Positions 37,525 to 41,649 of a stretch of 64,000 bases of DNA are shown here, piece by piece (position 1 is the first letter of the stretch; each line of letters begins with the position of its first letter). A program made the position numbers and the translations under genes. Below the pieces are notes generated by a model. The model saw only the letters and a list, made by a program, of their open reading frames with translations, was not told the DNA's origin and searched no databases. Source of the DNA: SAR202 cluster bacterium (lineage in GTDB: Bacteria; Chloroflexota; Dehalococcoidia; Lucifugimonadales; UBA3495); assembly GCA_016872385.1 (NCBI GenBank), contig VGZV01000005.1:6578-70577 (forward strand), read 5' to 3'.

Positions 37525-39423
37525 CTATTTACCCCCGCAGACTCCCGCCGGGCCCAGGGGCGGCGGTCCCAGCACTACTGAAGCGGGTTCGCGCAAGAAC
37601 ACTTGCCAGTCATCGTCGCCCCGCACCTTGAACCTCACCACCGGCGGAGGCGCCAGTTCATCGGGGTTCATTAAATAGATTCTCCAGCCGGTGGCAGGGT
37701 CGGCGCTTGACCCATCACTACTGGCCTCAAACACCCGGGGGATGGAATTGGAGTCGTCAAACAACGCCGTCCCATTGGCATGCTGGCAAAAACGCACCAG
37801 AGGCTGCGCCCCCTGGTAGCTACTGGGCATATAGGTTATCCAGTTAATAAAATTCCAGAGGTCTCTCCCCACCAGACGGTCCCGGCAGGGAACTTTTTCG
37901 GCTCCTACTGGAAAGATAAAGAGCGTTTCTCTTTCCAGTTCCGACGTCTGCAACTCTTGAGTAGTCCAGCAGTGACCCTGGGGGTCACGCAAGACGACGA
38001 ATATGCTCTGCACCATAGCCGCGCCGTCTCCTTCCCGTTCCCAGGTGGCATCTATTAATAACTCTTGAATCGCCGCCGGGGGAGATATGACCTTCTGGGA
38101 GATATCCAGCGGCCGCGTAAAGATTATGCCGTGCTCCAGGCCCTCGCCTGCCTGACCAGTCAAAATCATCTCATCGTCCCAGTCAGTACGGCATGGATGC
38201 ACTTCTGAAACGGTGCTCAACGCTTGCTGCACCAGCATGTAGTCCGGGTTTTTTTCTGGCCGGTGGCCGGTGCTCACTGCGGCCTTCAAAAACAACCGCC
38301 CGTTTCTAGGAATTTCGTCTTTAAAGTCGTCATTTTCAATGTAGATAATCCACTCATCTTGGACGTCGGCAGTAGTTACTGCTATCCCCTCAAAATCAAA
38401 GGGAGCGTCTTCCCTGCCTTCCCGCTGAGTCTTGCAGTTGCCGTGAGGATGCTCCAGGGTGACCTGCACGCTGGGCGCGGCATTAAAAGTGTCATCCCAA
38501 ATCACGTTGCCCCGAATGGCTACGCTGCCCTCTGGGATCGGAGCTTTGGGCCCGCCGGAGCGGGAAACAAGCTGGAATGGGAAGGAATAGACCTTGCCAG
38601 GTTCAATCTTTTCCAGGGCCTGGATGTCTATCAGGTCCCACTTTTCCTGGCGGAAATAAGTCCAGTTTTCCCGGGCAAAAATGGCCCAGTAAGCCGTGTA
38701 TCCCAGAATAGCCATTACCACCAGCGCCAGCAGGGTAGCTGGGATATACCACCAGCGGATCCATGCTACGGCGTCCAGTTGAGCGCGCAGGGTCCGCACT
38801 TCCGGGGTCTTGTCTGGCGTAACGGTAATGGTCAGGTTGTAGGTCTTGGGCCGCCCGATAATGGGCCGCCGCCGGGGCCGCACACTAATGGCGACTTCGG
38901 CTTTAGACCGGGGCGGGGTTGTGGGGGCCGCGGGTTCAAAGGTGAAGCGGCAGTACCGCTCCGGGTCCTCTCCAGCCAGGCCAAAGGACAGGCCTGCATT
39001 GCCGCCATTGGCAAGGGTCAGGGTAAAAGCGCCGCGTCTGCCAGTGACCTTTTCCGGAGAAAGGCTGGCCTCATAGACCAGGGACGGCTCCACCTCCAGC
39101 ACGCCCGCTTCGGTGGTCACCTCCTGGGGAGACTTGGCGGAGGTAACCCGCACCGTAAATGGGTAAGGCTGGGCCACGGCCTCGTTGCGGGACGGCAGCC
39201 GGAAGGTGATGGTGCTGGCAGCCTCCTCTCCAGGGAACAGGGAGAGCGATGACCTGGACAGGCTGTACCAGGCGTTGTCCAGCCCCAGCACTTCAATGGA
39301 GAAGGCATCCACCAGGAAGCCAGCGTTCTGGACGGTTATCTGAGCCTGGACTTCCCTGCCCACGGGCAGCAAAACCCGGTCGGGGGTAAGGGTTACTCTA
39401 ATGACGTTGGACTTGAGCAGCAA
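37525..39423 (-). CDS. eCIS-associated single-pass membrane protein: two N-terminal Ig-like (COG1470-like) domains, TM helix, duplicated C-terminal beta domain
   Basis: No signal peptide; LSLFPG..., YPFTVRV, PRRRPIIG; TM WWYIPATLLALVVMAILGYTAYWAIF. C-terminal repeats VTLEHPHGNC/VVLRDPQGHC and WIIYIEN/WRIYLMN. Confidence 0.75.
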   Translation of the reverse strand: MLLKSNVIRVTLTPDRVLLPVGREVQAQITVQNAGFLVDAFSIEVLGLDNAWYSLSRSSLSLFPGEEAASTITFRLPSRNEAVAQPYPFTVRVTSAKSPQEVTTEAGVLEVEPSLVYEASLSPEKVTGRRGAFTLTLANGGNAGLSFGLAGEDPERYCRFTFEPAAPTTPPRSKAEVAISVRPRRRPIIGRPKTYNLTITVTPDKTPEVRTLRAQLDAVAWIRWWYIPATLLALVVMAILGYTAYWAIFARENWTYFRQEKWDLIDIQALEKIEPGKVYSFPFQLVSRSGGPKAPIPEGSVAIRGNVIWDDTFNAAPSVQVTLEHPHGNCKTQREGREDAPFDFEGIAVTTADVQDEWIIYIENDDFKDEIPRNGRLFLKAAVSTGHRPEKNPDYMLVQQALSTVSEVHPCRTDWDDEMILTGQAGEGLEHGIIFTRPLDISQKVISPPAAIQELLIDATWEREGDGAAMVQSIFVVLRDPQGHCWTTQELQTSELERETLFIFPVGAEKVPCRDRLVGRDLWNFINWITYMPSSYQGAQPLVRFCQHANGTALFDDSNSIPRVFEASSDGSSADPATGWRIYLMNPDELAPPPVVRFKVRGDDDWQVFLREPASVVLGPPPLGPAGVCGGK

Positions 39424-39437
39424 CGCTTGTGCTCCCG

Positions 39438-40874
39438 CTATTTGGGGAAATACAGGGCGTGGCCCGTGTGCTCGCCCGTTATCACACCAGTTTTAGGGTC
39501 ATAATTAAAGTCGAAGGGATAAAAGCCCTCCTCGGGACTGATTTGAGCGTTGACGATATCGCCACCGATGTCTATTACAACTGTTCCTCCCTTCACTTCC
39601 TTCACGCTGATGGGCGTACCAAAGTCATGACTCATCACGGTCTTTTCATCTGAACCGCTCAGGTAGCAGAAATGTCTTCCTTCGGCTTTAAAGTCCACCT
39701 TCTGGCCCTTTCTTTGGGGGGCTGCGTTAACCGGAGCGTGCCTGGTATATCCGGTGGCAGTAACCGTATATGTTGAGTCTTCGTAAGTATTTCCGGTGGA
39801 AGGGTCAATGTATGGTTCAGTGTTCTTGGTCCGGAAAACTGTCGGCTCATTCTTCCAGTCCATCACAGGTGTGGTGCTCGTGGAAGTTGACGAACCGCCG
39901 CCGCCATTGCGCTGCACATCCTGCGCCGCGCCGCCCTGCTGCACCACGTGAGTCAGCTCATGGGCCAGGGTCTCCCGCCCCGCGGCGGTACCTGGAGAGT
40001 ACTCCCCCTGGCGGAAATAGATGTCCTGGCCGGTGGTAAAGGCCAGGGCGCTCACCGACCGGTTCAGGGCGTCCGCCTCTGCGCCGGTATGGATGCGCAC
40101 CCCGCTGAAGTCCGCGCCAAAGGCCTCTTCCATGTGGGCTTGCACGTTGTCAGGCAAGGCCTGGCCCCGGCCCCGCGACTGCTCCACCGCTTGCTCCACT
40201 TCCAGGCCAGCGTCCCCACCTTCCAGACCCACCGCCCGCTGCAGGGGCTTCATTTGCAGTTCCTCGTCCTCCTCTACCCGCTGCAGGGGTTTCATCTGCA
40301 GTTCCTCGTCCTCCTCTACCCGCTGCAGGGGTTTCATCTGCAGTTCCTCGTCCTCCTCTACCCGCTGCAGGGGTTTCATCTGCAGTTCCTCGTCCTCCTC
40401 CACCCGCTGCAGGGGTTTCATCTGCAGTTCCTCGTCTTCTTCCACCCGCTGCAGGGGCTGCTGGCCCAGGGCAGGCATTTTCTGCACTACCTGTTTGGCC
40501 ACACGGTCCGCCTCCTGCTCGTAGGCGTCGCCCGCGGGCCCCACGGTCAGCTTGGTCTGGATGGTCTGGGCCTGCTTCCGGCCCTTAGCCGCCGCCAGTA
40601 CTTGCTGGACGTACCGGTTGCCGCCTTCTTGTTGCAGGCGCTGGACTATTGCGGCCCGCTGGCGGGCATTGCGAGGCTGGGCCATGGCCGGGCCTGCCAG
40701 CATGTCGGCATGGGCTTGAAAGCCGCGCTGTCCCAGCACATCTGTAAGCACTTCCTGTTCCGGCGAAGCCGGGCTATGCTGGCGTTCAGCGGCGGTCCTT
40801 GAACCGCGCTGTCTGCCCTGGGCGCTGGCCTTGCCGGTCGCGTTTTTTGGAGCATGTCCTTTGGAAGCGGGCAT
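39438..40874 (-). CDS. DUF4157 (eCIS core domain) cargo/effector with unknown C-terminal domain
   Basis: LQQEGGNRYV, KLTVGPAGDAYEQEADRVA, FGADFSGVRIHT, AFTTGQDIYF, LAHELTHVVQQ, then VQR and a ~150-aa AT-richer tip. Start MPASK after GGGAGG. Confidence 0.88.
   Translation of the reverse strand: MPASKGHAPKNATGKASAQGRQRGSRTAAERQHSPASPEQEVLTDVLGQRGFQAHADMLAGPAMAQPRNARQRAAIVQRLQQEGGNRYVQQVLAAAKGRKQAQTIQTKLTVGPAGDAYEQEADRVAKQVVQKMPALGQQPLQRVEEDEELQMKPLQRVEEDEELQMKPLQRVEEDEELQMKPLQRVEEDEELQMKPLQRVEEDEELQMKPLQRAVGLEGGDAGLEVEQAVEQSRGRGQALPDNVQAHMEEAFGADFSGVRIHTGAEADALNRSVSALAFTTGQDIYFRQGEYSPGTAAGRETLAHELTHVVQQGGAAQDVQRNGGGGSSTSTSTTPVMDWKNEPTVFRTKNTEPYIDPSTGNTYEDSTYTVTATGYTRHAPVNAAPQRKGQKVDFKAEGRHFCYLSGSDEKTVMSHDFGTPISVKEVKGGTVVIDIGGDIVNAQISPEEGFYPFDFNYDPKTGVITGEHTGHALYFPK
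40235..40457 (-). repeat. 42-bp in-frame tandem repeat (VEEDEELQMKPLQR) x5 plus partial
   Basis: Units start at 40235, 40277, 40319, 40361, 40403, 40445; no spacers. Confidence 0.95.
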
Positions 40875-40914
40875 AACAGGCCCTCCCATGTGAATGATTG
40901 ATAATGCGCAGGCG

Positions 40915-41649
40915 CTAACCGCCCAACCCCCGCCAGGCGGCCAGACCAATGGCTATCCCAATGCCGATGACCGGAAATACCCAGCCCGGCACTTTTGGCA
41001 GCACTTGCAACTGGGCGGTCACCACCACCGCAGGAGCCACCGCAGGGTCCGGGGTAACCTTTGCGCCAAAGCGGTGCGGTTTGCCCTTGAATACCCAGGG
41101 CCTCCGCCGCGGTTGGACGGACATAACCACTTCAGCCCGCCCGCCGGGCAGGACTCGGGGATACTCCGGCCGAAAAGTAAACACACAATCCCCTTCAGGT
41201 CTCTCTCCCGAAAGATTGAACGAGGTAGCGCTATTGCCGGTATTTTCGATTCCTATGTTATAGACCCCCACAAGGCCTGCGCCATTTACCGTTGCAATAT
41301 CTGCTTTAAAATCGCAAAAGCTTGCCACTTCCAGGGCGCCGGGCAGCGCGGTTTCCTGGGAGGGGTCCTGCTGCGATTGGACCCTGACGGTAAAAGGGTA
41401 AGGGCCTGCCAGCGCGCTGCTGGCTCTGGGCGGGCTGATGAAGAGTGTGCTGACCGCGCTATCGCCGGGAAACAAGGAGGCGCTGTGCAGGGACAGGGTC
41501 CGCCAGGTATCCCACAGTCCATCCACCTGGATAGACAAAATGTCCAGCATGGCGCCTGCATTGGTTATCTGGATAACAGCTTTGACCTGCTCGCCAGGAT
41601 TTACCTGGAGCCGCTCCGGGCTTAGCAGGGCAACTACGGGATCAGGCAT
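40915..41649 (-). CDS. Short paralog of the eCIS membrane protein: two Ig-like domains plus C-terminal TM anchor
   Basis: SASLFPGD, AGPYPFTVRV, PRRRPWV; TM WVFPVIGIGIAIGLAAW at the C-terminus. Confidence 0.78.
   Translation of the reverse strand: MPDPVVALLSPERLQVNPGEQVKAVIQITNAGAMLDILSIQVDGLWDTWRTLSLHSASLFPGDSAVSTLFISPPRASSALAGPYPFTVRVQSQQDPSQETALPGALEVASFCDFKADIATVNGAGLVGVYNIGIENTGNSATSFNLSGERPEGDCVFTFRPEYPRVLPGGRAEVVMSVQPRRRPWVFKGKPHRFGAKVTPDPAVAPAVVVTAQLQVLPKVPGWVFPVIGIGIAIGLAAWRGLGG

Follow-up and report, generated by a model that had tools for sequence, protein, structure and literature searches.

How does a contractile injection system (CIS) that stays in the cytoplasm reach the membrane, and what decides when it fires? 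Both are known for Streptomyces only, via CisA. CisA (SCO4242), the membrane adaptor of the cytoplasmic CIS of Streptomyces coelicolor, is a bitopic protein with its N-terminus inside; it is encoded directly downstream of the baseplate wedge genes, contraction depends on it, a contact with Cis11 is predicted, and its cytoplasmic part is described as largely unstructured (PMC12237407). Machines of the Chloroflexota/Deinococcota clade are cytoplasmic as well, their particles having been imaged, and Roseiflexus lacks close cisA homologues (PMC12998442). Here we analyse a 64,000-nt stretch of the genome of a SAR202 cluster bacterium (the window; all coordinates are window positions unless a locus is named). 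Its minus strand carries a complete CIS operon and, behind the baseplate genes, two genes for paralogous membrane proteins that share a tandem of immunoglobulin-like (Ig) domains, the Ig-Ig module. On balance we lean towards reading this pair as dedicated accessory bitopic membrane proteins of a fibre-less, type-IId-like CIS that dock its baseplate, and thus as a functional analogue of CisA. Their family is in our judgement the best candidate for membrane contact or triggering of such machines where CisA is absent.

The two proteins, which we call the long and the short paralogue, comprise the following features.

37525..39423, minus strand: long paralogue, 632 residues, with Ig-Ig module, transmembrane helix and duplicated ectodomain (open reading frame, AlphaFold2, BLASTP)
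38770..39402, minus strand: Ig-Ig module of the long paralogue, residues 8-218 (predicted local distance difference test, pLDDT, > 90)
38674..38748, minus strand: single transmembrane helix of the long paralogue, residues 226-250 (hydropathy, AlphaFold2)
37573..38643, minus strand: predicted extracytoplasmic domain of the long paralogue, two homologous beta-rich repeats at residues ~261-400 and ~404-617 (self-BLAST, hhalign)
40915..41649, minus strand: short paralogue, 244 residues, with Ig-Ig module and then a C-terminal tail anchor (open reading frame, BLASTP, hydropathy)

The paralogues are 38% identical over 226 residues (BLASTP, E 1e-45), in an alignment that spans the SLFPG, PYPFTVRV and RPRRRP motifs. 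The open frame of the long paralogue offers no earlier start codon than the one used, and that of the short one extends only three codons further upstream until it meets a stop (open frame 247 residues). Neither frame leaves room upstream, and hence neither protein has a signal peptide. In the AlphaFold2 model of the long paralogue, two beta-sandwiches (residues 8-111 and 117-218) at pLDDT > 90 are followed by a helix at 226-250 and by two beta-rich domains at pLDDT 60-80. The short paralogue has a lone transmembrane helix at residues ~222-240 of 244 (window 40930-40986; hydropathy), with some five residues after it, and its orthologues of 245-259 residues stop 2-10 residues past the helix. 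It is therefore predicted to be a tail-anchored membrane protein, with a C-terminal transmembrane helix and no signal sequence.

Beyond the helix the long paralogue is internally duplicated. Residues 262-335 match residues 415-490 (self-BLAST, 29% identity, E 1e-5), and a profile-to-profile comparison of the repeats gives 98.7% probability and E 3.4e-16 (hhalign), with the motifs V.L..P.G.C and W.IY..N in register. A middle segment found in the homologues is missing from the first repeat of the window protein. The residues Cys330 and Cys513 are conserved throughout six homologues. Modelled alone, the ectodomain reaches a pLDDT of ~65. Its nearest folds are tandem jelly rolls (SID-1/SIDT, PNGase F, CBM pairs) at E 2e-3, a hint only. 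Full-length relatives of the long paralogue are few and all lie in CIS cassettes, and a word-indexed search with the ectodomain only gave one further homologue. An earlier note, made from the letters of this DNA, had described the pair as paralogues on the strength of the quoted motifs, without signal peptide, each with two Ig-like domains and one transmembrane helix, the longer with an internally duplicated extension, and the two flanking an effector gene. Every part of this description stood: the motifs fall within the alignment, frames, hydropathy and AlphaFold2 agree on the architecture, the duplication is significant by both methods, and the intervening gene is a DUF4157/eCIS_core gene, named for the extracellular contractile injection systems (eCIS).

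The Ig-Ig module itself most closely resembles, by Foldseek, the hydin/CFAP-type Ig domains of the ciliary central apparatus and the SPD-2 domain of CEP192 (E 1e-9 to 1e-13). Its predicted fold is thus like that of ASH/PapD-like/E-set Ig domains (hydin, CFAP65, CEP192 SPD-2; FixG_C, NPCBM_assoc/NEW3). However, both window proteins stay under all Pfam and NCBIfam family cutoffs, the best Pfam scores of the modules being 15-18.5 bits against cutoffs of 24-27, and a fixed unit of Ig-Ig and then transmembrane helix corresponds to no described family. The sub-cutoff Pfam matches are Cep192_D3 and HYDIN_VesB_CFA65-like_Ig in the long paralogue and NPCBM_assoc in the short one; some relatives do pass the FixG_C cutoff. 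Neither paralogue has a Pkinase or FHA match in Pfam or a CIS13_fam match in NCBIfam.

Which way round the proteins sit in the membrane can be judged best from their relatives. In these the Ig-Ig module follows directly C-terminal to Pkinase/FHA domains or a zinc ribbon, with no transmembrane helix between; nearly all have a transmembrane helix 0-15 residues after the module, and past that helix come domains of extracellular type (TSP3, Big_2, SH3_3, PASTA, DUF11). Since the cytoplasm is where kinase and FHA domains act, the Ig-Ig module is placed there too, and we regard these fusions as the most telling topology evidence. The positive-inside rule, to which we give little weight, mildly favours the same orientation across the family: in 53 proteins, the 15 residues flanking the helix hold 111 Lys and Arg before it versus 68 after it. 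The likeness of the fold to cytoplasmic ASH-type Ig domains (Foldseek) counts in its favour as well. A single-pass (bitopic) topology with the N-terminus inside is thus well supported for both paralogues by these computational criteria.

The gene neighbourhood connects the pair with the baseplate. The order of genes is Baseplate_J, Tail_P2_I, Cis13-like::DUF4159, short paralogue, effector, long paralogue, and the genes upstream of and between the paralogues are as follows.

62121 down to 42880, minus strand: upstream CIS operon, with SARP/BTAD regulator, AAA ATPase, Pvc16-type cap, sheath, two gp19-type tubes, 1058-residue protein, LysM tube initiator, VgrG, gp25, Baseplate_J and Tail_P2_I
45839-62121, minus strand: the part of this operon beyond Baseplate_J, up to the AAA ATPase and SARP regulator (Pfam)
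43777-45834, minus strand: Baseplate_J, Cis11-like (Pfam)
42880-43461, minus strand: Tail_P2_I, Cis12-like (Pfam)
41659..42852, minus strand: Cis13-like::DUF4159 protein, 397 residues (Pfam DUF4159, E 4e-13)
39438..40874, minus strand: DUF4157/eCIS_core effector (Pfam eCIS_core, E 5.3e-33)

The short paralogue starts with ATG behind the ribosome-binding site GGTGG, 9 bp after the preceding gene's stop, and the long one follows the stop of the effector after 14 bp with the ribosome-binding site GGGAG. Downstream of the long paralogue the genes lie on the opposite strand, the first encoding an EamA transporter, so the paralogue genes close the CIS operon. To judge from this arrangement, both membrane-protein genes are co-transcribed with the baseplate genes.

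The same cassette recurs in all five known contexts of the clade (the window and the loci L003, L133, L134 and L135). Each has the Cis13-like::DUF4159 gene, a short tail-anchored form (244-259 residues) and one or two long forms, and four of the five have the effector; in L135 the short and long forms stand as a pair without an effector between them. Short-form orthologues of 245-259 residues occupy the matching position in L003, L133, L134 and L135. In the tree, short and long forms are sister clades, so that the pair goes back to an old duplication. The short paralogue is a conserved form and no recent truncation. In L133 the effector and the long paralogue are separated by a gene for a SAM (S-adenosylmethionine) methyltransferase, and the contig ends in a transposase gene (4067-4645, 6916-7365).

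The 397-residue neighbour is a probable partner or adaptor of the paralogues. Its residues 29-114 match NCBIfam CIS13_fam (E 5e-12), at 45.7 bits against a cutoff of 370 and over the N-terminal ~90 positions only. The DUF4159 protein is present in 16-19 of the 401 evenly sampled genomes of the phylum; in 13 of 15 loci the very next gene encodes an Ig-Ig protein, as it does in the named CIS loci (defined below) that have the DUF4159 protein. A scan of genome contigs with an alignment of DUF4159 proteins gave no confirmed relative.

Across these 401 genomes the module and the CIS go together. The module occurs in 65 genomes and a close sheath in 61, with both in 52 (odds ratio 145, Fisher p 2e-43), and all 44 module copies on a sheath-bearing contig lie within 2-32 kb of the sheath gene. 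Among top-scoring copies in genomes without the DUF4159 protein, 9 of 16 are in CIS loci, after the wedge gene or at the cap/ATPase end. We also scanned species-representative genomes with a Baseplate_J alignment, which gave 80 named CIS loci, 61 of them with enough downstream sequence. The module lies downstream of the wedge gene in 41 of these 61, from five phyla (Chloroflexota 33/42, Actinomycetota 3/12, Gemmatimonadota 2/2, Acidobacteriota 1/1, Armatimonadota 1/1); L065, from an unclassified bacterium, was added by hand to the 41. The hidden Markov model of the module had no match in the CIS loci of Streptomyces, Streptacidiphilus and Rhizomonospora. A profile-free search returned 3837 cluster representatives with an Ig-Ig module. 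The module is one that bitopic sensors in general carry next to the membrane, and CIS loci have taken it up several times over.

Several CIS loci show more elaborate versions of the unit. Kinase loci of Chloroflexota, Gemmatimonadota and Acidobacteriota encode, after Tail_P2_I, a Ser/Thr kinase with usually at least one FHA domain, then Ig-Ig, a transmembrane helix and TSP3, Big_2 or SH3_3 (L056:13657-20430, L065:6489-10841, L113:12536-16330, L057:12701-15703, L079:13324-16086, L084:13012-15627). L056 has two kinase and four FHA domains; no FHA domain was found in L057. In L044:12754-14238, L054:7598-9643 and similar Anaerolineae-type loci, a convergent FHA-IgIg-TM gene (TM, transmembrane helix) stands directly after Tail_P2_I. 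Elsewhere five or six tandem Ig-Ig-TM paralogues with differing C-termini lie downstream of the CIS baseplate genes (L041:12417-21948, L043:12428-21179 and L037, G295:C1:2050348-2066986), and some members of these arrays carry extra Ig repeats.

The closest comparison is with CisA. Like CisA, the pair occupies the slot right after the wedge genes of a fibre-less, type-IId-like CIS, and like CisA the long paralogue is predicted to be single-pass, with its N-terminus inside and a beta-rich C-terminal domain outside. The four Streptomyces loci that we fetched have in this slot a bitopic CisA-like protein with two zinc-ribbon motifs, a Pro-rich N-terminus and a discoidin/F5-8-type-C-like C-terminal domain (L101:11205-12668, L115:12713-14377; the two proteins are 68% identical), and no Ig-Ig gene; the two families thus replace each other. 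Homology to CisA was rejected, the BLASTP E-value against the CisA-like protein of L101 being 7.7. The cytoplasmic parts are built differently as well, Pro-rich with zinc ribbons in the fetched loci but a rigid tandem Ig module in the window, where the module moreover comes in two paralogues, of which one lacks an ectodomain, and is accompanied by a Cis13-like::DUF4159 partner gene. A relative outside any CIS (L129:9836-11164) combines a zinc ribbon, Ig-Ig, a transmembrane helix and PASTA, a layout thematically similar to that of the CisA-like zinc-ribbon proteins. With the tail fibres of eCIS and with Cis13/Afp13 the pair shares the slot past the wedge genes, and the 397-residue protein upstream keeps a Cis13-like N-terminal domain; the paralogues, however, are predicted to be membrane-anchored and inward-facing and have no fibre-like repeats or knob domain. 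A full-text search of literature linking CIS with DUF4159, kinase/FHA membrane proteins or Ig-like transmembrane proteins found no description of the family.

The earlier note had gone on to propose an inward-facing N-terminus, a role for the short paralogue as a sensor-less anchor, a link to fibre-less CIS loci and an analogy with the Streptomyces adaptor. Its two other proposals, baseplate binding by the Ig domains and signal sensing by the external domain, enter our model below as suggestions only. The orientation gained computational support from the lack of a signal peptide, the tail anchor and the kinase/FHA fusions; the anchor idea agrees with the tail-anchored form kept in all five cassettes; the link was borne out by the co-occurrence check and the named loci; and the analogy extends to gene position and topology, not to sequence. 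To the question whether homologues live mostly apart from CIS genes, which the note took to speak against its proposal, the answer is divided: the pair's own clade has so far turned up only in CIS cassettes, but the module also exists away from them, for the most part in receptor Ser/Thr kinases, so that in itself it is no dedicated baseplate binder.

How might such a pair work? The source genome (a 2.7-Mb assembly of a member of the Chloroflexota, 97% complete; its class-level relatives have small genomes) holds just these two Ig-Ig copies and no kinase-bearing paralogue, by genome search. With no other copy, no kinase paralogue and Ig-Ig as the sole predicted cytoplasmic part, any intracellular output must pass through the Ig-Ig module. 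We suggest that the module recruits or retains the CIS baseplate at the membrane. Contact would most likely be made via the Cis13-like::DUF4159 protein, or with Cis11/Cis12 directly; the former is the most economical route, as its N-terminus resembles the baseplate-attached Cis13 and as it is inherited with the kinase-less forms. The duplicated external beta-sandwich domain of the long paralogue may couple this contact to an envelope condition. The sensor-less short paralogue would be its partner, serving as a constitutive anchor or, in a heteromer, as a regulator. The pair would have been drawn from a wider family of transmembrane sensors that carry the same module between kinase/FHA domains and the membrane.

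A number of observations weigh against this proposal. At fourteen further module sites, some of them in genomes with a close sheath and some in genomes that lack one, there is no CIS gene up to 10 kb away; most of these sites encode receptor kinases of the kinase-FHA-IgIg-TM-ectodomain type. Thirteen genomes that have the module have no close sheath. A tree built from 63 modules mixes those linked to a CIS with those that are not, with 9 changes versus a mean of 12 after shuffling. Such interleaving implies that the module is no baseplate binder by ancestry, and it may be a mere spacer or oligomerization unit. The long paralogue has one Lys/Arg before its helix versus three after it, which is unfavourable for an internal N-terminus. 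Foldseek with the ectodomain alone found nothing at E ≤ 0.001, and a low-confidence model that lacks a significant match leaves sensing by this domain a conjecture. That the CIS of the window organism is cytoplasmic is extrapolated from relatives. The locus was found in sequencing runs from lake-water metagenomes, all of DNA, and no RNA runs were found.

The kinase relatives raise the alternative that the window proteins are no docks at all, but kinase-less members of a Ser/Thr-kinase/FHA sensor family that control assembly, loading or expression of the CIS indirectly. There is a precedent in the H1 type VI secretion system (T6SS) of Pseudomonas aeruginosa, where the PpkA/Fha1/PppA threonine-phosphorylation pathway, with a transmembrane sensor that has a cytoplasmic kinase and with an FHA domain, gates a contractile injection machine according to the state of the envelope. 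A comparable plan, kinase-FHA-IgIg-TM-ectodomain, is found among relatives of the window proteins in other CIS loci, although PpkA is not known to have an Ig-Ig juxtamembrane module. Many related CIS loci have this plan or FHA-IgIg-TM after the wedge gene, the unlinked members share the receptor-kinase architecture, and a SARP regulator heads the CIS operon. We nevertheless think indirect regulation unlikely for this pair: the window proteins have no kinase or FHA domain, the genome offers no other module copy to pair with, and the kinase-less forms are the very ones inherited with the baseplate-type Cis13-like::DUF4159 protein. In the literature searched, no kinase link to this CIS lineage was found.

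Unlinked copies of the module and the gains or losses of CIS linkage in the tree would also fit proteins of the envelope or cell surface that have an independent task, for instance adhesion or sensing of the wall, and that came to lie beside CIS islands by co-transfer. This is improbable given the gene spacing, which suggests translational coupling, the order kept in five cassettes and across five phyla, and the extreme co-occurrence statistic. The position around the DUF4157 toxin, here and in three other cassettes, suggests immunity proteins, membrane receptors or chaperones for the effector, immunity genes often adjoining toxin genes and often encoding membrane proteins. Yet the L135 pair has no effector between its members, many module loci have no adjacent eCIS_core gene, and immunity proteins would hardly come as kinase/FHA fusions or as arrays of up to six paralogues whose ectodomains differ, which makes such a service decidedly improbable. 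Least of all do we expect a holin-like exit function that releases an extracellular CIS. Small single-helix proteins closing a phage-tail-like operon bring it to mind, but a folded cytoplasmic Ig-Ig module of 220 residues, a large ectodomain or fusion to a kinase would be foreign to a holin, the related CIS stay in the cytoplasm (PMC12998442), and a Pfam search of the window genes found no endolysin near the pair. The immunity-protein and holin readings were rejected on these points.

If the pair does dock the baseplate, it would be a candidate CIS membrane adaptor built from other parts than CisA and, from the loci compared, more widely distributed; the candidates are concrete, namely a conserved three-gene module of Cis13-like::DUF4159 protein, tail-anchored Ig-Ig protein and Ig-Ig-TM sensor, with relatives in at least five phyla. 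The family could fill the cisA gap that the 2026 study of Chloroflexota/Deinococcota particles noted for Roseiflexus (PMC12998442). A broader and more tentative proposal, possible but in our view doubtful as a whole, is that cytoplasmic CIS outside the streptomycetes are wired to the exterior by hitherto unrecognized bitopic Ig-Ig sensors: kinase-less pairs would dock the baseplate via the Cis13-like::DUF4159 protein and fire on envelope damage or attack, and kinase/FHA relatives would act by phosphorylation. The presence of such relatives in the same slot suggests that phosphorylation signalling may control some of the machines. Taken as a whole, the broader proposal describes a cell-death machine derived from a phage tail and triggered from the outside in, by a system that would have evolved independently of the T6SS phosphorylation pathway but in parallel to it.

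Two minor observations concern the neighbours. In L006 and L007 an FHA-IgIg-TM protein lies in a kinase/PP2C/FHA/VWA neighbourhood that adjoins MoxR and DUF58 genes; elsewhere DUF4159 presumably belongs to Bat/MoxR-type operons, and these loci may hint at a shared partner system. The longest open reading frame of the effector starts with TTG at 40949 and has 35 bp in common with the short paralogue. More probably translation begins with the ATG at 40874, behind GGGAGGG and past the stop codon of the short paralogue, which would give a protein of ~478 residues. Its C-terminal ~150 residues have no family match, and N-terminal to the eCIS_core domain, at about residues 175-245, it contains five perfect tandem copies of PLQRVEEDEELQMK.

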